IMG/VR virus record: IMGVR_UViG_3300038468_000170
Span: 32,020 to 96,019 of that record
Length of the DNA stretch: 64,000 nt
Origin: a virus
Strand: one strand, 5' to 3'
Numbering within the stretch: position 1 is the stretch's first letter; every line of letters starts with the position of its first letter. The translations under genes were made by a program, and so were the position numbers. Below are positions 31,004 to 64,000 of this stretch, piece after piece. The notes under the pieces were generated by a model, which made no database searches, was not told the origin of the DNA, and saw only the letters and a list, made by a program, of their open reading frames with translations.

Positions 31004-33394
31004 TCACCAGGAGATGCGGCTGACGAACCACGGGGTGCCGCCTCCTTGTTTGGGCTTGTGGTCGAACCGTCGGCCCCCGACGTTCTTCTTCTTATACTTC
31101 CGGAGCTGCATGCTGATGAGCTTCGTCGTGAGCTTGTCGGGCGAACATTCACAGAGCTCCGCGAGGGCTTCCTTGAGCGCGGCGTGGGCGAACGCCCCGA
31201 CATGCATCTCGGCGAGGAGGTCTGAGACGAGCATGGGCTTGCCGAGCTTCTCCCATTCAATGAGCACGCGCTCGAGGACACCTAGCTCTGAATCTCCGCT
31301 CTCGACGAGTTCTCTGCGGCCATTGATCGGGTCCGGCATGCCGGCCCATACGAGCGCGCCTCGTACGATCCGGCTCCATTGCTCGAAGGAGCCCCACGAT
31401 GTCAACCTTTGATCAGGACAGCCTGCGGCGAAATAACCTCGTAACACGGTCAGGACGGCGCTCGCGAGCTTCGGCCGTTCGCGGTGCACGTGTGGGAGGA
31501 TTGGATCGTACTTGAAACCGGTTCGGTGCTCGGGATGCTCGAATGCGGTTTCTAGACGAACATGTAGAGCTCGACCGACGAGCTCGTTCGACAGGATGAG
31601 GTTTTGCGCTGTCACGAGCCAAAGCGCACGCATCGGCATCGCCACCATTTCGGTGACTCCGAGTCGTCGATCTAAAACAGCCATGCTCGTGATCACTCCT
31701 GCGAGCGTCGATGAATCGAGAACCCCTTCGACGTTGTCGAGTAGGATGATCGGATCTCCCGAGATCGCGAGCGACAAAATCCGCTTCCTCATTTCTTCCT
31801 CGTTCGTCTTCGACGTCCTAGGAAGGGATCTGCCGGAATAGATCTCCCCGATGATGTCTGCGAGATATGTTGCGCCGACCCGGCGTGCGTTCTTGTCGAG
31901 CACGCCAAACGGCACGCAGCCGTCGATCGTCGGGCGAGCGAACGGCGTGAAGAGCAAGGCCATCCACGCAGAGAAGTGCTCCTGGCTCACGAACGGGAAG
32001 TCCTGAACAATGTCGAACAAGGTCGCGATGGCCGTCGTTGCGTCGTCCAGGGTCGGCTCGGACGGGATCGGCGGGAAGTCGACGTTCGGTTCGTAGAAAA
32101 GCCCCGTCGCACGATCGTAGCCGGGTGTGTCGAGTATCGTTCCGTCTGGACGAAGCACCGGGCACTCGGTGATGCCTTCCAAGAACTTGACCCCGGGCCA
32201 TTCTCCGCGACAATGCAGCTCCGTGAGAGGATCGTCCGGAACGCCGCACGAGACCAACGTGGATTCTCCGCTGCTTGTTGTCTTCCAGCGTTGAAACGCA
32301 CAAGCGTGCGAAATGAGCCCGCGTGTTCGTGCTCTCGACATTTCGGAGATGATCGGAGCGTTCGCTTCTCGGCGGATTGGTTCTTCGTCTTTGCTTTTGT
32401 TCGGGTCACGAAGGATCTGCACGAGCTTCCAGCCTCTGTTGAACACGTTCGGTAGGCTCGCGAGTGCCGGGAGCATCTGATCGGCGACCTCGAGTTCGTC
32501 GAAGCCGCAGATGATGATTACGCGGTCGCCTGTTGGTTCTTTTCTGGCGGGGAGCCACTTCCTCGCCCGTGACACGAGCTTCTTGCCGCCCACTCCACCG
32601 CCTAACGGACGATCGGCGATGAGTTCCGTCACGCGGTTCCAGCTTGTGATCGGCTCTCCAGCGGCGAGCTTCTCGGCCGTTCCTTTGACTGTCGCCGCGC
32701 GCGCTCTCGGATTGTCCGAGCCACCTGCCCACGCTACGAGCCCTACGAACAGTTCGGCGTTCTCGGCGGACCATCCGTCTCGCAGAAGTCCTCCGCCGAG
32801 CGCGAGGCAGAAGTCGTGACGTCCTTTCTTGGGGAAGTACCGGGCGAGGAGGCACGCTGCCGCGAGTACGCCGACGGCGGCTTCTAAGGTGGCGCGTTCT
32901 ATATGTGGGATCTGTGCCGGGTCGGCGCCGTCCTCGAAATCTATGTATTCGCCGCTGACGTGGTGGCTCCCGGGGAAGACGGTCTGGACGCCGCCCGTAC
33001 GGAGCTCGACGATCGTCTTGCCGGCTCCGTCGATGTTCGGGTCCTCGAACTTCAGGTGTTTCGGGACGTCGGAGACGTAGAGCCAGTGCGACGCGCGCTT
33101 GCTCGGGCGGCCGAAGCGCCCCGGCGTCGCGGGCAGGAGATGAGGCGCCAGGGCGAGTGCCTCGGGGCAATCGATGTCGACGTCGACGAGATTTTTGGAC
33201 GCCTCCCCGAGAATGATCCCGATGTTCTGCGGCGCACCGTTGAAATAATGTGGCGCCGTCTCGTGCGTGATCCGCAGGTTCGTCCAGTTCGGGATCGTCG
33301 GCCCCTTCTCTCGATACGGAACCGGAATCGGTTGCCACCCTAGGTTGATGTACTCGAGCGCGAGATCAAAAACCGTGATGGGTGGTAACGACAC
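31004..33394 (-). CDS. Bifunctional primase-polymerase (Prim-Pol) fused to a C-terminal helicase-like domain
   Basis: GWQPIPV..REKGP, NIGIILG, LVDVDID, SHWLY, ELR and VFPGS.H motifs; C-terminal LDN and TAQN motifs. Confidence 0.85.
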   Translation of the reverse strand: MSLPPITVFDLALEYINLGWQPIPVPYREKGPTIPNWTNLRITHETAPHYFNGAPQNIGIILGEASKNLVDVDIDCPEALALAPHLLPATPGRFGRPSKRASHWLYVSDVPKHLKFEDPNIDGAGKTIVELRTGGVQTVFPGSHHVSGEYIDFEDGADPAQIPHIERATLEAAVGVLAAACLLARYFPKKGRHDFCLALGGGLLRDGWSAENAELFVGLVAWAGGSDNPRARAATVKGTAEKLAAGEPITSWNRVTELIADRPLGGGVGGKKLVSRARKWLPARKEPTGDRVIIICGFDELEVADQMLPALASLPNVFNRGWKLVQILRDPNKSKDEEPIRREANAPIISEMSRARTRGLISHACAFQRWKTTSSGESTLVSCGVPDDPLTELHCRGEWPGVKFLEGITECPVLRPDGTILDTPGYDRATGLFYEPNVDFPPIPSEPTLDDATTAIATLFDIVQDFPFVSQEHFSAWMALLFTPFARPTIDGCVPFGVLDKNARRVGATYLADIIGEIYSGRSLPRTSKTNEEEMRKRILSLAISGDPIILLDNVEGVLDSSTLAGVITSMAVLDRRLGVTEMVAMPMRALWLVTAQNLILSNELVGRALHVRLETAFEHPEHRTGFKYDPILPHVHRERPKLASAVLTVLRGYFAAGCPDQRLTSWGSFEQWSRIVRGALVWAGMPDPINGRRELVESGDSELGVLERVLIEWEKLGKPMLVSDLLAEMHVGAFAHAALKEALAELCECSPDKLTTKLISMQLRKYKKKNVGGRRFDHKPKQGGGTPWFVSRISW

Positions 33395-58063: not shown

Positions 58064-58287
58064 CCGATCTGTTCGTCATGGTTCGCGACGACCCCCGCGT
58101 CTGGCGGCTGGTGTCGTACGACGATCTCAACTTGCGGCTCAGGTCGCTCGACGGACTCGAGCTCGAGACACCGAAGAGTCTATGCTGCGTGGGCGAAGTG
58201 AAGCACTGGTGCGGCTCACGGCGCTTCGGGGCCGCGTGGTTGGCGGGCGGCGGAGAACTGTTCATGAGAAACGCAGGTGCGGCGTGA
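58060..58287 (+). CDS. Hypothetical protein
   Basis: GTGA-coupled on both sides. Confidence 0.5.
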   Translation: MTDLFVMVRDDPRVWRLVSYDDLNLRLRSLDGLELETPKSLCCVGEVKHWCGSRRFGAAWLAGGGELFMRNAGAA

Positions 58288-59135
58288 TCGCGCGTCCGTG
58301 TCTCAAATGGGCTGGCGGGAAGACCAAGCTCTTGTCGGAGATACTTCCTAGGCTTCCGAAGAAGATCGGCACCTATTACGAACCGTTCCTGGGCGGTGGC
58401 GCTGTTTTCTTTGCGCTCGTGGCGGAGGGGCACCGTGCCACTAACGGTCCAGACGCAATCACACGGTTCGAACGAGCCGTAGTTGGCGACACGAACGAAG
58501 AGCTCATGAACGTCTACGCACAGATTCGTGATGCCGCAGGTACGCTGTTGGTCTATCTAGATCACGACATCAAGCAAGACGAAAAGACGTACTACCAGAT
58601 CCGAGCGCAAGATCCGAGGTCATTGCCGCCTACAATGCGCGCAGCACGGACGATCTACTTGAACAAGGTCGGTTTCAACGGCATTTATCGTGTGAATCGT
58701 AAGGGGGCGTTCAACGTACCATGGGGCAAGCAAGAGGGGCGAGCGCTCTTCGACGAGGCGAATTTTCTGGGTTGCTCGCTTGCTCTCCAGTGCGCAACAC
58801 TCGTCTCGTTCGACTTCGAGAAAACGGTCGCTTCCGCGAAGAAGGGTGACGCGGTCTACTTCGACTCTCCATACGTTCCCGCGTCGGAGACGGCGAACTT
58901 CGTCGCCTACACCGCCGGAGGTTTCAGCGAGAACGATCAGATCCGACTCCGTAACGTCGCGAAGCGTCTCGTGGACCGCGGCGTCCACGTCCTTCTATCG
59001 AACAGCGACACGCCGCTCGTGCGGAAGCTCTACACGGGTTTCAAGGTTGATCGGGTAGAGGCGCCTCGACGGGTGAACTCGAAGGGCGACAAGCGCGGGA
59101 ACGTGGGAGAGCTACTTATCTCAGGGAGAGAATGA
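58284..59135 (+). CDS. dam: D12-class N6-adenine DNA methyltransferase (Dam-like)
   Basis: LKWAGGK, EPFLGGGAV, FNGIYRVN..G.FNVP and LSNSD motifs; motif IV reads DSPY. Confidence 0.92.
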   Translation: MIARPCLKWAGGKTKLLSEILPRLPKKIGTYYEPFLGGGAVFFALVAEGHRATNGPDAITRFERAVVGDTNEELMNVYAQIRDAAGTLLVYLDHDIKQDEKTYYQIRAQDPRSLPPTMRAARTIYLNKVGFNGIYRVNRKGAFNVPWGKQEGRALFDEANFLGCSLALQCATLVSFDFEKTVASAKKGDAVYFDSPYVPASETANFVAYTAGGFSENDQIRLRNVAKRLVDRGVHVLLSNSDTPLVRKLYTGFKVDRVEAPRRVNSKGDKRGNVGELLISGRE

Positions 59136-59138
59136 CAA

Positions 59139-61607
59139 ATGAAAGCAATCCGTAATTTCTTGTGCATGATCGTGGCCGTCGTGGCCGCCTGCGCGCCCAT
59201 CGCGAGCGATAGCGACGGGGCGAAGATCCATACCGAGACGGCGCGCCAAAGGCTCACGCCCGTCTATCCGCTGAAGCGGGCTCCGGGCGCGCGCTACATC
59301 ACGGACCAGGGCGGGACGCCCTTCTTGGTGAACGCCTGGACCGAGCACACCATCGTCACGAACATCCCCCCGAGCGCGTACGGGCAGATCATGTCGACGC
59401 GCGCCGCGCAGGGCTTCAACGCCGTGCAGGTGCAAGTGCTCGTGAACAACTACATCCACAACCCGAGCGCGTGTACGGACGACGGGATCTGTCCGTTCAC
59501 GACAGGAGGCTCCCAGCCCCAGCCTGCCGACCTATCGACTCCGAACGAGGCGTATTTCGCGCGGCTAGACCAGGTGATCTCGGCGGCCGCCGCCTCGAAC
59601 GTCGTCGTCTTCCTCACTCCGCTCGATGAGGGCGGCTGGGCGGATCCGGGTCAGAACAACACTCTCCACGCGAACAGTGCAGGCGGCGCGGGACATACGA
59701 AGCTCTACGGGTACGGGCAATACCTCAGTAACCGCTACAAGAACTCCCCGAATATCGTCTGGCAATTCGGCAACGACTTTCAGAACTGGTGCTCCTCTTC
59801 GACCACGAATGGCCTCACGGACGACCAGCTCGTCCTTGAGATCGGAAACGGCATTCGGAGCGCGGACACGATCCTCCCGAAGCCCGCGACGATCGAGCTT
59901 GCGTACCTCATCTCGAGCACAATCGATGACACGGCGATCTGGGGACCATTCTCCGACTTCAACGCGGTCTACACGTACGCGCCGATCTACTCGCGCGTGC
60001 ACCACGACTACGGCGCGGATAGCCGGCCGAGCCTCATGATCGAGAGCTTCTATAATGGCGAAGGGAATCCTCCAGCGAACTGGACGACCGCCGCGCACGA
60101 CGCAAGGAAGGAGGCTTGGTGGTCGATACTCGGCGGGGCGGCGGGCACGTTCTTCGGGAACAACGGCGACTACGATCCGAGCCATTCTCCGTCCTTCGAC
60201 CCGGTCGCGGCGCTCACCGATCCGAGCGCCGCGGAGGTCGGCTACATGAGCGGCTTTTTCGCGGCGCTTCCGTGGTGGACGCTCGTCCCGGATCGCAACG
60301 CGAATACGATCGTGACGGCCGGCTTCTGCCCGAGCGGCACGACCTGCTACGACACCACGGAAGACGGCTGCGACAACGGATGCGCCTCATGCGTCTTCGC
60401 GTCGCACTCTGCCCAGGTGAACTACTACGCAACAACCGCCAGGACGAGCGACGGCGCGTACATCGTCTCGTACATGCCATCGCCGCGTACGATCACGGTC
60501 GACCTCACGAAGATGAGCGTCTCGCCCTTCCAAGCGCGCTGGTTCAATCCGGCGGCGAACACGTACACGACAATCGGGACCTTCACGAACGTCGGGAGCC
60601 AGCAATTCACTCCGCCAGCGGCGACGCCCGAGCAGACCGCAAACTGTAACGACAGCGATCATTCGAAGTGCGCCGACTGGGTGCTCATTCTTTCGCCGCT
60701 CCCGGGCGATGGCGGCACCGGGACGGGAGGAGCCCCGGGGACCGGCGGGGCGCCCGCGACGGGTGGAGTGACTTCGACCGGAGGCGCGCCGAGCACGGGT
60801 GGAGTGACTTCGACCGGAGGCGTCACGTCTACGGGCGGCGACACGTCGACTGGAGGGACAACGGGAACGGGTGGCGACACATCGACCGGAGGGACAAGCT
60901 CGACCGGAGGGACAAGCTCGACCGGAGGAACGACGAGCACCGGCGGTACGACGGGCACGGGCGGCTCGACGGGCGGCACGACGCCGATCTTGTTCGTACA
61001 GGAGAACAACGCCGTGCCGCAATCGTCGCCGACCAGCGTCGCGGTGAAGTACACGCTCGCGCAAGCGGCGGGAGACCTCGACGTCATCGTGGTCGGCTGG
61101 AACGATTCGACGAGGCACGTCTCGAGCGTCGTCGACACGCAAGGGAACCCGTACGCGCTCGCGGTAGGTCCGACGGTCGTGAGCGGCACGCTTTCGCAGT
61201 CGATCTACTACGCCCCGAACATCGTCGCCGCTGCCGCGAACGCAAACACCGTGACCGTCACGTGGAACGGAGGGGCAGCGTTTCCGGACATCCGGATCCT
61301 AGAGTACAGTGGCATAGCGCCCGTCGCTCCCGTCGACGTGACGAAGGCGGCGACAGGCACCGGCACGAACTCGAACAGTGGGAGCGTCACCACTATGAAC
61401 GGCCACGACCTCCTCTTCGCTGCGAACACGATCACGACCACGACGAACGGCCCCGGATCTGGCTACACGAAGCGCGTCATCACGTGGCCGGACGGCGACG
61501 TCGCCGAGGATCGCGTAGTCTCGGCGACGGGGAGCTACAGCGCGACGGCGCCGATGAGCTCCGGCAAGTGGATCATGCAGCTCGTAGCCTTCAAAGGTGT
61601 GAATTGA
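59139..61607 (+). CDS. Lipoprotein: DUF4038/apiosidase-like glycosidase + collagen-binding-like domain + Thr/Gly linker + C-terminal beta domain
   Basis: VVAAC lipobox; GTPFL, QGFN, PNEAYFARLD, RYKN.PNIVW..GND, WFNP and DWVL motifs; STGG repeats. Confidence 0.8.
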   Translation: MKAIRNFLCMIVAVVAACAPIASDSDGAKIHTETARQRLTPVYPLKRAPGARYITDQGGTPFLVNAWTEHTIVTNIPPSAYGQIMSTRAAQGFNAVQVQVLVNNYIHNPSACTDDGICPFTTGGSQPQPADLSTPNEAYFARLDQVISAAAASNVVVFLTPLDEGGWADPGQNNTLHANSAGGAGHTKLYGYGQYLSNRYKNSPNIVWQFGNDFQNWCSSSTTNGLTDDQLVLEIGNGIRSADTILPKPATIELAYLISSTIDDTAIWGPFSDFNAVYTYAPIYSRVHHDYGADSRPSLMIESFYNGEGNPPANWTTAAHDARKEAWWSILGGAAGTFFGNNGDYDPSHSPSFDPVAALTDPSAAEVGYMSGFFAALPWWTLVPDRNANTIVTAGFCPSGTTCYDTTEDGCDNGCASCVFASHSAQVNYYATTARTSDGAYIVSYMPSPRTITVDLTKMSVSPFQARWFNPAANTYTTIGTFTNVGSQQFTPPAATPEQTANCNDSDHSKCADWVLILSPLPGDGGTGTGGAPGTGGAPATGGVTSTGGAPSTGGVTSTGGVTSTGGDTSTGGTTGTGGDTSTGGTSSTGGTSSTGGTTSTGGTTGTGGSTGGTTPILFVQENNAVPQSSPTSVAVKYTLAQAAGDLDVIVVGWNDSTRHVSSVVDTQGNPYALAVGPTVVSGTLSQSIYYAPNIVAAAANANTVTVTWNGGAAFPDIRILEYSGIAPVAPVDVTKAATGTGTNSNSGSVTTMNGHDLLFAANTITTTTNGPGSGYTKRVITWPDGDVAEDRVVSATGSYSATAPMSSGKWIMQLVAFKGVN
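60715..60980 (+). repeat. Coding (T/S)TGG linker repeats
   Basis: 18-bp-period units such as TCGACCGGAGGGACAAGC. Confidence 0.7.
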
Positions 61608-61665
61608 TGAGATGTCCACACCTCAAGATTGGAGCGGACGCTACGGAATCACGAAGGAGCAGAAC

Positions 61666-62013
61666 ATGAGCGAGCGCAACCCGGAGCCGGCGAATCTTTC
61701 GGCGAGTGTGCCACCTGATTCTCAGAGCGCACGGATGGACGTCCGGTGTCGCGAATCGACGTGGCGCATGTTGATGGAGGAGACGGTGACGATCGTGGGC
61801 CTCCACATTGTGGCGCCCACGCTGCCGCCGTGGACTGAAGTGAAATTGCGCCACAGCGCAGAGGAGTGGGTAGACTCCTCGCTCTCGAAGTGGGCGGCTG
61901 GTCTGGACCCGCGCTTGCGGGTGTGCGAGCGCAACGAAGTGATCGTCATGGTCGGCGGACTAGCTCAAAGCGTGACGTTAATGGTGGTTCGCGAAAAAGG
62001 GCCGCGCGAATGA
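61666..62013 (+). CDS. Hypothetical protein, first unit of the cassette array
   Basis: AAGGAG RBS; stop lies inside the first ATGAAGCAC. Confidence 0.55.
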   Translation: MSERNPEPANLSASVPPDSQSARMDVRCRESTWRMLMEETVTIVGLHIVAPTLPPWTEVKLRHSAEEWVDSSLSKWAAGLDPRLRVCERNEVIVMVGGLAQSVTLMVVREKGPRE

Positions 62014-62228
62014 AGCACGGATGTACGGCAGACCGCGCGGAGCGGGGCACGGGACCTATGAAGAAAGACGTAAGCACCAGCGCGCTAGCACTGTCTGTTG
62101 TACTGGCGATATTCGGTTTTTGCCTTACGAGTCACACGCAGTTCGGGCACGCGATCGATTTCGTGCTCGTGTTCGAGGCTGGCTTCTTGGGCGCATTCCT
62201 GGTTCAGCGAATCATGGCGCGAAGATGA
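62010..62228 (+). CDS. Cassette gene: small two-TM protein
   Basis: MKHGCTA start; two hydrophobic segments. Confidence 0.6.
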   Translation: MKHGCTADRAERGTGPMKKDVSTSALALSVVLAIFGFCLTSHTQFGHAIDFVLVFEAGFLGAFLVQRIMARR

Positions 62229-62506
62229 AGCACGAGACTCAATCCGTCCTCGGGGCGACTCCGCCGGTCGATTCTGAGTTCTGCATCCGGTGCGGCTCCG
62301 ATCTGGAATGGGTCGACTGCTGGCAATGTGGTGGAGAGGGTGCGACGTTGCCGGGTGATCTATACGAAGAAGATCCGCTCTGGTATGCGCCCGATGACAC
62401 GGAACCTTGTCATATCTGCCTGGGCCGTGGTGGCTGGCAACTTTGCGCGAACCGCTGTGACGAGAAGCCGGCTGGAATCAGCGACGAGACTGGGGAGCAA
62501 AAATGA
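62225..62506 (+). CDS. Cassette gene: DnaJ-type zinc-finger protein
   Basis: MKHETQSV start; CWQCGGEG...CHICLGRGG. Confidence 0.7.
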   Translation: MKHETQSVLGATPPVDSEFCIRCGSDLEWVDCWQCGGEGATLPGDLYEEDPLWYAPDDTEPCHICLGRGGWQLCANRCDEKPAGISDETGEQK

Positions 62507-63099
62507 AGCAGGATGCCTCCGGGTCCCGGCGCCGTAATTCTGCGGAGTCCGTCTCGCGGACGGCGGTGCTGGTCGATTCTGTGCTCCGTGCCTGCGCGTA
62601 CTGGCGGTACGCGGAGAGCGGGAAGTTTGACGTCGATGGCGTTCGACTCGTGCGTGGGCACTACTCCCGCCGCAAGCCGGACTCGCCTCAATTCATGCCG
62701 CCAGGTGAGACCATCGTGCTCGTGACGGCAGACAAGACGGCCGTGTGGGGATGGTGGCGGCCTCATCCGGACAGCGGCATCGTCGCCATGAATGGGCGCG
62801 ACGGCTGGACGTGCAGCGTCTTCGCGAACCATGGCGGCGCGTTGTCGAGCGAGCTCGTACTGGACGCGGAGCGCGCTCTCGCGGCGCTCGACTCGGCCGG
62901 GCTCACCGCGGGCCCATGCGGCCCGGACGGTATGATGACCTACGTTTGGCGCTCGAAGGTGAAGAGCCCTAATCCTGGCTACTGCTACAAGGTCGCCGGC
63001 TGGGCGAAGATCGGGACGTGCGCGCGAGGCACCAAAGACCTGCTCGCGAAGCCGCTTTCGGTGGCCGGAATCAAACCCACACTCAAGAGGGCAAGATGA
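62503..63099 (+). CDS. Cassette gene: Mom-like / GNAT-fold DNA-modification protein
   Basis: HYSR...PPGE..VL, CSVF.N...SSEL, TYV and NPGYCY..AGW motifs. Confidence 0.65.
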   Translation: MKQDASGSRRRNSAESVSRTAVLVDSVLRACAYWRYAESGKFDVDGVRLVRGHYSRRKPDSPQFMPPGETIVLVTADKTAVWGWWRPHPDSGIVAMNGRDGWTCSVFANHGGALSSELVLDAERALAALDSAGLTAGPCGPDGMMTYVWRSKVKSPNPGYCYKVAGWAKIGTCARGTKDLLAKPLSVAGIKPTLKRAR

Positions 63100-63299
63100 A
63101 GCACGGATGTACGGCAGTCTCTTTGACGTGCGTGCCACCTAGCGAACGCTGTCCGGAGTGCATGGGAGATGGGTTCGAGATGGGACGCGACGGTCCATAT
63201 CCGTGCGTCGTTTGCAATTGGACCGGCTCTGTCTCACCCGAACGGCGCGAGTGGTGGGAGACGACAATTCAAGCTGAACGAATTGGAGCGCGCAAATGA
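63096..63299 (+). CDS. Cassette gene: small zinc-finger protein
   Basis: MKHGCTA start; CPECMGDG...CVVCNWTG. Confidence 0.65.
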   Translation: MKHGCTAVSLTCVPPSERCPECMGDGFEMGRDGPYPCVVCNWTGSVSPERREWWETTIQAERIGARK

Positions 63300-63568
63300 A
63301 GCACGAGACTCAGTCCGTTCCAAGCGCGAGCGCGCCGGTCGATTCTGACCATGATGGTCATGTGCGAAAGTACCAGCGACAGCGTGCTATGCGGCACTCG
63401 GACATGATGCGCCCTAGGAAGTGCGATGCCTGTCACGGAGTAATCTGTTGCTATTACGGAGAAAAGACGGTCGAGAGTCCCGAGGCGCCATGCGGGGTTT
63501 GGATTCTGCATCCACTGTGTTCTCCTCCGAAGGTGGGCGTAATTATCGCCGAAGACTGGAGCGCCTAG
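63296..63568 (+). CDS. Cassette gene: Cys/His-containing protein
   Basis: MKHETQSV start; CDAC...HPLC. Confidence 0.6.
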   Translation: MKHETQSVPSASAPVDSDHDGHVRKYQRQRAMRHSDMMRPRKCDACHGVICCYYGEKTVESPEAPCGVWILHPLCSPPKVGVIIAEDWSA

Positions 63569-63621
63569 ATGAAGCACCGTTGCCGAGTGAATAATTCGCC
63601 ACCGTGCTCCGTCCACCGGAC

Positions 63622-64000
63622 ATGTCGAATCGCAGTCTCGAAGACGCTTGTCACGCCTACGCCCAACACTCCCGCGCGCCGGGCACGCGCGCCTCGTACC
63701 TCCAGAAGATGGTTCCGTTCCGAGCGTTCTGCGCGGAGCGCGGCGTCAAAGCCGTGCCCGCCGATCCCGAGACGGTCCGTCTCTACCTCGCCAAGCTCGC
63801 GGAGGACGGCTTGAGCGTCTCGACCGTGAACCAGTTCCTCTCCGCCATCGGGGAGGCGCACGAGGCCGAGGGGCACCTCTCGCCGCGGTTCCACCCCGCC
63901 GTGCAGCAAGTCTGGCGCGGGATCCGTCGGACGAAGAAGGTCCGCGCCATCGGGATGAAGCCGCTCCTCGCCGAGCACATTCGGAAGATGCTCGCAGCGA
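63622..64000 (+). CDS. Cre-like tyrosine recombinase, N-terminal core-binding domain (3' truncated by window; not in ORF track)
   Basis: Manual translation: MSNRSLEDACHAYAQHSRAPGTRASY...FRAFCAERG...PADPETVRLYLAKLAEDGLSVSTVNQFLSAIGEAH...HPAVQQVWRGIRR...KPLLAEHIRKML. Confidence 0.85.
   Translation, partial: MSNRSLEDACHAYAQHSRAPGTRASYLQKMVPFRAFCAERGVKAVPADPETVRLYLAKLAEDGLSVSTVNQFLSAIGEAHEAEGHLSPRFHPAVQQVWRGIRRTKKVRAIGMKPLLAEHIRKMLAA

Follow-up and report, generated by a model that had tools for sequence, protein, structure and literature searches.

Candidate stop-start adaptors join small genes in arrays of uncultured wetland and sediment viruses

Results

Six junctions with a common core

The window analysed here, a stretch of 64,000 nt, is the last 64 kb of a 96,019-bp contig from an uncultured wetland virus (IMG/VR record IMGVR_UViG_3300038468_000170, positions 32,020 to 96,019). 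Close to its end lie six small genes (g1-g6, 61612-63568, + strand), followed by a tyrosine recombinase gene, and the six junctions of this array have in common a core, ATGAAGCA, at 62010, 62225, 62503, 63096, 63296 and 63569. The core reads on as ATGAAGCAC at 62010, 62225, 63096, 63296 and 63569, and as ATGAAGCAG at 62503. At sites 1-5 the upstream open reading frame (ORF) is closed by the TGA inside ATGA, which the ORF list confirms as both the previous stop and the next start; at site 6 a TAG stop stands directly before the ATG. Type A sites are identical at 22 of 22 nt (62010-62031 versus 63096-63117). Type B sites are 79% identical over 70 nt (62208-62277 versus 63279-63348), a stretch of which about 17 nt lie upstream of the ATG. 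The arrangement TCCGT-N18-GGTCGATTCTG recurs with the same spacing at 62266, 62571 and 63337. A sequence-only reading of the window had listed these sites, types and spacings, and all are present as it gave them. The order that it reported, A-B-C-A-B-D, is likewise present, and is a property of this genome: the same types stand in other orders in other arrays. Matches to the 9-mer with at most one mismatch numbered 22, against 10.4 +/- 3.2 in shuffled sequences, and the six exact or near-exact ones fall within 1.6 kb. Elsewhere on its + strand the 96-kb contig has only one more exact copy, in a region whose long ORFs are on the other strand.

Around each core we could delimit a linker, all on the + strand. 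We compared positions 59000-65400 (window numbering, continued across the contig join) with all related loci by blastn, and found matches only to the end of a Dam-type methyltransferase gene, to five linkers, and to site 6 together with the recombinase gene. Linker 1 (type A, 61992..62057, core 62010-62017) matches other arrays only at 61992-62055, and the frame of its leader, MKHGCTA..., stays open as far as a second ATG at 62058. It is homologous to a class of linkers whose leaders end as mini-ORFs (...ACGGCAG-NCCGCG-GGAGCGG...CCTATGA), and represents a length variant of that class in which the canonical second ATG is in frame. Linker 2 (type B, 62210..62277, core 62225-62232) has the leader MKHETQSV..PPVDSE, carries a tail motif, GGTCGATTCTGA, at 62266-62277, and matches only at 62217-62277. 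Linker 3 (62488..62582) has a type C head, with the core ATGAAGCA at 62503-62510 followed by G, and a blastn match at 62488-62516; it also holds a displaced B-type tail, TCCGT-N18-GGTCGATTCTG, whose motif lies at 62571-62581, an offset of +68. Linkers 4 (type A, 63060..63126, core 63096-63103) and 5 (type B, 63276..63351, core 63296-63303, tail motif 63337-63348) match only at 63060-63126 and 63276-63351, respectively. Linker 6 (type D, 63554..63621, TAG then ATG, core 63569-63576) opens an 81-codon frame (63569-63814) that overlaps the recombinase start (63622) out of frame; the related array G004 is alike, with 87 codons, and its DNA is 89% identical to the window over 63561-64567, which covers site 6 and the recombinase gene. 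The 81-codon frame may be what remains of a leader, or it may lower translation of the recombinase as an overlapping ORF. All six leaders in the window continue in frame.

The genes between these linkers are diverse. The first, g1 (133 aa, 61612..62013), holds the 5' half of linker 1, a Shine-Dalgarno (SD)-like run, in its last codons; it belongs to no Pfam or PHROG family and has no DNA or protein match in any related array. The 72-aa product of g2 (62010..62228) has a hydrophobic body, which probably starts at the second ATG, 62058. Next come g3, encoding a 93-aa Cys-rich, zinc-ribbon-like protein (62225..62506) with a sub-threshold match to DZR, and g4, encoding a 198-aa protein of PHROG 24928 (62503..63099). 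A 67-aa CxxC zinc-ribbon protein is encoded by g5 (63096..63299), with homology to PHROG 26056 from residue 17; we looked for a match in cultured phages and found none. The last gene, g6 (90 aa, 63296..63568), ends in TAG. No homologue of the bodies of g1-g6 was detected in other arrays, the protein level included, and tblastn matched leaders only. BLASTP alignments of g2 with g5 and of g3 with g6 likewise covered the leaders alone (7 and 19 residues).

A linker family with interchangeable parts

Searches for the exact type A and B heads located arrays in four IMG/VR records, a search with the 5' flank added two more (six in total), and a 20-mer of type A retrieved 35 metagenome contigs, nearly all with several linkers. 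A 14-nt tail-motif search of IMG/VR returned more than 119 matches, overwhelmingly due to chance; a search with the 15-mer CGCGCGAATGAAGCA gave 38 loci and, beyond the records already found, arrays only in L025 and L044. In bacterial genome contigs the 20-mer had two lone matches, in metagenome-assembled genomes of Butyrivibrio and Solirubrobacteraceae, with no array around either; since this count is about that expected by chance, no host can be inferred from it. Altogether we collected 136 unique junctions (96 headed by ATG and 40 by GTG) from the 6 IMG/VR records and about 35 metagenome contigs. NTGA overlaps were present at 148 of the 187 core occurrences examined, and the position profile shows conservation from about -25 to +45 around the core.

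The GTG-headed form is also present in the window genome. The last ~225 bases of the contig (window 63776-64000) repeat the first ~225 (L001 1-225) with 8 mismatches; because the contig end repeats its start, the genome is circular or terminally redundant, its map running on from window position 64000 to L001, the contig start. The mismatches in this terminal repeat suggest a mixed population in the assembly. The array that follows the recombinase gene across the join has linkers with the core CCGTGAAGCA, and (A/G)TGAAGCA is common to these and to the window sites. In related contigs, one and the same downstream module can follow an ATG head or a GTG head (L185 653 versus L191 293; L192 1579 versus 2682), and L192 1290 is an ATG-headed form of the window genome's own GTG linker. 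By the shared core, the interchangeable heads and the linker at L192 1290, the ATG-headed window sites and the GTG-headed linkers beyond the recombinase form one linker family. Every array that we examined (the window genome's own, G001-G004, L166, L167 and L192) has the same polarity, with ATG-headed linkers first and GTG-headed linkers after them; in the window genome and in G004, the boundary between the two holds the recombinase gene.

From 5' to 3', a linker consists of an SD-like purine run, (A/G)TGA, AGCA, a sub-type-specific leader head and a variable 3' end. The purine run, at about -16 to -9, lies inside the last codons of the upstream gene. An SD-like 4-mer at -15 to -5 precedes 76% of leader starts and 72% of mini-ORF cargo starts, compared with 17% of control windows. 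Leader heads include MKHGCTA (type A), MK[HQ]ETQS (B), MKQDAT (C), MKQGT[QH] (E) and others. Most ATG-headed leaders begin M-K-H (in the window, those at 62010, 62225, 63096, 63296 and 63569). With its Met retained, such an N-terminus with His at position 3 would be of the ATCUN (amino-terminal Cu- and Ni-binding) type; this is probably incidental, M-K-Q heads being equally common. At the 3' end, 82 leaders continue into a long ORF, in many cases by way of the tail motif, and 53 are closed as mini-ORFs of 3-29 codons, with peaks at 14, 15, 19 and 24-25 codons. In its general plan such a mini-cistron has 8-25 codons, holds a further SD and is joined to the cargo by another NTGA overlap; of the 48 mini-ORFs whose cargo could be identified, 36 have a stop that overlaps the cargo start in this way. 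The same MKHGCTA head is found in fused and free leaders. Hence, the suggestion that the junction is read as an N-terminal peptide of the next gene fits the window, where leaders are fused in frame, and does not extend to the 53 of 135 family members in which the leader is free-standing.

Leaders as additions to cargo genes

If linkers are units apart from the genes that they join, homologues of those genes elsewhere would be expected to lack the leaders, as the sequence-only reading had proposed to check. They do. Just past the recombinase gene lies a paralogue of g4, g4', that is ~80% identical to it in DNA; the similarity begins right after GGTCGATTCTG and ends ~40 nt before the next ATGA, leaving out ~28 codons of the leader and 13 of the tail. 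Paenibacillus phage Lily and Salinibacter phages encode g4 homologues whose start lies 22-33 residues further on, and alignment to the PHROG profiles sets in only at residue 41 in g4 and at residue 17 in g5. In related contigs, domains begin directly behind the leader in a 134-aa protein of L170 and a 299-aa protein of L176, these being a YAcAr domain (from residue 19) and a D12 methyltransferase domain (from residue 26). By these comparisons, leaders are add-ons to the cargo genes. No Pfam, PHROG or NCBIfam family covers the leaders.

Whether leaders are conserved as DNA or as protein had been raised in the same reading, and the answer differs between their parts. In codons 3-7, compared within sub-types, wobble positions hold 41 of 59 differences (22.7 expected; p = 6e-6), and type A heads show 11 synonymous and 4 non-synonymous differences. 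Because head differences are biased to wobble positions, the leader frame is likely to be translated and constrained as codons or peptide, and not only as DNA. The tail motif GGTCGATTCTGA marks the 3' end of the leader at 24 of the 136 sites, in most cases at position +41, and has the opposite pattern: the wobble T's of its GAT and TCT codons are invariant in all 24 copies despite GC-rich genomes, and it is codon positions 1 and 2 that vary. In 22 of the 24 copies it is read in the frame used as (P)VDS(D/E), and two copies lie in another frame. We detected no partner or fold for this motif. The 3' halves of mini-ORF linkers are conserved as SD, spacer and start, with differing peptides.

Linkers as seams between unrelated genes

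We compared pairs of junctions in which only one side is homologous. Where the upstream genes are homologous and the downstream genes unrelated, homology is lost at +8 in 17 of 26 pairs; in the reverse pairs, with homologous downstream and unrelated upstream genes, it begins at -1 or 0 in 11 of 17. The pairs of both classes are not phylogenetically independent. About 15 upstream clusters are joined to at least two different downstream modules, and about 11 clusters show the reverse. Assembly chimeras cannot explain these joints, because only 8 nt are shared at them, and several joint arrangements recur in separate contigs.

Recent events at the core are visible between nearly identical genomes. 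A 401-nt cassette present in L186 is missing from L169, and a 377-nt cassette present in L173 is missing from both L175 and L182; in each case the flanks are 99.5-100% identical and both ends are ATGAAGCA. These single-gene indels were found in the full contig list, and de-duplicated windows showed none. Where identical leaders stand on unrelated cargos, homology stops directly behind CACCTATGA (+48/49) or behind the tail motif (+53/54), which makes the 3' leader edge a second seam. Both kinds of evidence agree with the claim that the junctions are discrete units and that the genes between them act as core-bounded cassettes.

We also compared Logan contigs from four wetland runs with the array. 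In one run the same array is contained in a single 2.3-kb piece with one difference; contigs of the other runs break at linkers, and the joints there, with sides of 20-24 nt, are linker chimeras of other viruses. No excision or circle junction was seen in the Logan contigs of the four runs. A search for RNA runs that contain the stretch found none.

Folding, transcription signals and the recombinase gene

The junctions had been described as palindromic. As single-stranded DNA, the six sites fold no better than shuffled sequences (z = +0.09, +1.11, -1.54, +0.94, -0.48 and +0.73), and across 128 linkers the mean z was +0.21, compared with -0.04 for control windows (p = 0.08). The position profile shows no dyad symmetry around the core, and the array contains no reverse-complemented core. 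We therefore rejected a palindrome or an attC-type fold, the linkers being no more structured than shuffles or control windows. A simple scan of 57.5-64 kb found no sigma-70-like promoter and no + strand terminator, which is weak evidence; an Rfam search of 61400-64000 returned no known RNA family at E <= 1.

The gene behind linker 6 encodes a 314-aa Xer/Cre-like tyrosine recombinase (63622..64000, continuing to L001:791, + strand); its 5' part is in the window, the gene being split across the contig ends because these overlap. It scores 15.6 bits with the integron-integrase model TIGR02249, for which the cut-off is 265, and its best matches are generic Xer models, far under their cut-offs. 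An identity as an integron integrase was rejected on the TIGR02249 score. The gene points the same way as the cassettes, stands among them and has a linker of its own in front (site 6). Of the fetched stretches, only those of G004 contain a homologue (93% aa identity), which likewise follows a type D linker at the boundary between ATG and GTG blocks. The fetched stretches of G001-G003, L166, L167, L169, L192 and others yielded none; in these the GTG block follows immediately on the ATG block. G001, a complete genome, has a Phage_integrase domain ~2.5 kb from the array. To judge from this context, the recombinase is most likely the virus's integration enzyme, carried as cargo.

Discussion

We consider it likely, with a probability of roughly 0.7, that a group of uncultured wetland and sediment viruses uses a modular stop-start adaptor, represented six times at these junctions, which would serve both in translational coupling and as a recombination seam. 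On this account, ribosomes that end one gene would start again at the adaptor, whose uniform and weakly structured leader would make initiation on any cargo independent of the cargo sequence. Comparison of arrays shows the adaptors to be seams of gene exchange, with cassettes that have a core at each end and leaders exchangeable also at their 3' edge. The exchange itself would most likely proceed by short-homology or microhomology recombination, through general phage or host functions or replication slippage, followed by selection. The neighbouring recombinase probably does not catalyse it and behaves as one more cargo. The earlier proposal of standard junctions that plug cassettes into a translationally coupled array holds in its architecture and in the comparative evidence; as to its promoterless, coupled expression, the SD-like run, the NTGA overlap and the leader fit coupling by termination and re-initiation, and the failure to find a promoter is weak evidence for the other half of the claim.

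Several points weigh against this interpretation. With its 8 nt, the core is too short for RecA-type recombination of the ordinary kind. Translation and coupling are both read from sequence. The linkers are less structured than controls only marginally and non-significantly, and the breakpoint pairs, many of them in contigs from related samples, are not independent of one another. The wobble-biased conservation of the heads implies a constraint on peptide or codons that a pure adaptor or seam does not require, and the opposite pattern of the tail motif has no explanation in our model.

The precise indels bounded by the core would also be expected of an integron-like system, in which a dedicated recombinase, either the adjacent Xer/Cre-like enzyme or another, cuts and rejoins DNA at the 7-8-nt core and cassettes pass between arrays as circles. 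Breakpoints that fall on 8 nt, about the size of a tyrosine-recombinase overlap region, fit such a system, as do the co-orientation of all cassettes, the tyrosine recombinase inside the array here and in G004, and the Phage_integrase domain near the array of G001. Were the core indeed a dedicated crossover site, single genes could pass in circular form from one co-infecting virus to another and be coupled to translation as soon as they arrive. However, integrons rely on an IntI integrase that recombines attC with attI, attC being an imperfect palindrome that folds as a single strand, and on a divergent intI gene with attI and the promoter Pc at the head of the array. What we found instead is a recombinase far below the IntI cut-off, linkers without an attC-like fold, a core with neither dyad symmetry nor an inverse copy nearby, and a co-directional gene that sits behind a linker among the cassettes and has no homologue in the fetched stretches of most arrays. 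The integron model implied by the sequence-only reading fails on the type of integrase and on its absence from most arrays, and we regard a dedicated site-specific system as unlikely.

Another view takes the leaders primarily as functional peptides, such as a targeting or processing tag or a regulatory nascent peptide, with their DNA similarity and the breakpoints as by-products. The wobble bias and the synonymous excess in type A argue in its favour, as does the reading of nearly all tail motifs as (P)VDS(D/E). Against it, 53 of 135 leaders are free-standing and never joined to cargo, with the same head occurring fused or free; there are at least five unrelated head peptides, none covered by a known family; mini-ORF 3' halves keep their initiation signals while the peptides vary; and the tail motif fixes its wobble T's, lets positions 1 and 2 vary and occurs twice in another frame. 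We think it decidedly unlikely that peptide function is primary. Finally, the repeated A and B types might reflect a tandem duplication of an A-B gene pair with later divergence, and they do recur in the same order at spacings of 1086 and 1071 nt, or the likeness might be that of ordinary ATGA-coupled starts arising by chance. Neither is at all credible: the gene bodies behind the repeated leaders are unrelated, blastn matches are confined to linkers, the same leaders precede unrelated genes in dozens of other contigs, and the motif is clustered and enriched far over shuffles.

The adaptor reading has precedents in phage biology. In T4-type phages, PeSLs (promoter-early stem-loops) combine a sigma-70-like promoter with a terminator hairpin and lie in the intergenic spaces between ORFans of hyperplastic regions (Arbiol et al. 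2010, PMC2839356; Comeau et al. 2014, PMC4122927). The linkers resemble PeSLs in being short conserved elements between non-essential ORFans that supply each incoming gene with its expression signals, and in that recombination explains insertions, deletions and replacements among close relatives. PeSLs are transcriptional, whereas the linkers appear translational (SD, stop/start overlap, translated leader) and overlap both coding sequences; they have no promoter-like site, + strand terminator or hairpin, and no sequence in common with PeSLs. Mini-circles have been demonstrated for PeSLs, whereas none were seen for the linkers in the four wetland runs. The modular theory, as summarised in PMC2839356, holds that flanking conserved linkers target the exchange of modules and keep their expression right (Susskind and Botstein 1978; Botstein 1980). 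The theory is a conceptual one, and clean examples from nature are few; the present linker is an explicit case, and breakpoints and single-gene indels map to its 8-nt core.

On the translational side, the closest parallel is the start-associated sequences (SAS) and extended SAS (ESAS) of Cluster K mycobacteriophages, 13-bp asymmetric, SD-containing repeats that precede the starts of numerous unrelated non-structural genes by a few bases, in one orientation and in some cases with the stop of the preceding gene included, and for which a role in translation initiation was proposed (Pope et al. 2011, PMC3203893). The resemblance is functional only, with no sequence similarity: a 13-bp GGGATAGGAGCCC-like motif 3-8 bp before the start is absent from the -40 to -1 profile, which has a looser GGAG-like run instead. 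Unlike SAS, which stand upstream of the start, the linker unit spans the stop/start overlap plus 14-25 translated codons, comes in exchangeable sub-types and forms a recombination seam. For ATGA and TGATG overlaps, strict coupling by termination and re-initiation is established, 13 of the 14 gene pairs tested having shown it (Huber et al. 2019, PMC6728339). In the synthetic bicistronic design (BCD; Mutalik et al. 2013), as described in PMC5995908, a short first cistron holds the second cistron's SD in its 3' end and has an overlapping stop/start. Going by that description, mini-ORF linkers (53 of 135) are alike in being leader cistrons, most of them with an SD-like run ahead of the cargo start and a second stop/start overlap; unlike the BCD, which is engineered and placed behind a promoter, they are natural elements chained behind each preceding gene, and in the window the leaders are fused in frame. 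With integrons, finally, the arrays share promoterless, co-oriented single-gene cassettes, precise gain and loss at a short core and a tyrosine recombinase gene at the array; they differ in integrase type, fold, layout and the scarcity of the recombinase, and in a core that doubles as stop and start codon.

What is new relative to PeSLs, Botstein's linkers and SAS is a translated stop-start adaptor with exchangeable sub-types and an 8-nt seam; it is not a new category. For decades it has been debated whether the joints of mosaic phage genomes lie at conserved linkers or result from random illegitimate recombination followed by selection. The linker family offers an explicit, countable natural case, in which recent single-gene gains and losses between almost identical genomes end exactly on the core. 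It may also be a natural counterpart of the synthetic bicistronic adaptor, which serves to free expression from the influence of the gene of interest, and suggests how a virus could accept foreign ORFs and express them at once without promoters.

Genome context

On the + strand the order of genes is a Dam-type methyltransferase (58182-59135), an 822-aa apiosidase/GH5-like glycosidase (59139-61607) between the Dam gene and the array, g1-g6, the tyrosine recombinase, g4' and the second small-gene array. The glycosidase looks secreted; it contains a long linker of (T/S)GG repeats and has a beta-rich domain at its C-terminus. Because in relatives the array directly follows the Dam gene, the glycosidase gene, and probably g1 too, looks like a recent insertion.

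The paralogues g4 and g4' (window 62589-63056; L001 ~880-1350) form direct repeats of ~470 nt, ~80% identical, around g5, g6 and the recombinase gene; homologous exchange between them would remove the entire integrase module.

Besides many unknown small genes, the cargo of the arrays includes DNA methyltransferases, which recur, in C5 and D12 classes, as cargo or neighbours (L010 7653-8564 in G004; L176 686-1582; window 58182-59135). The g4 family (PHROG 24928) may have a functional tie to DNA modification. In phage Lily, the g4 homologue lies directly upstream of an N6-adenine methyltransferase gene.

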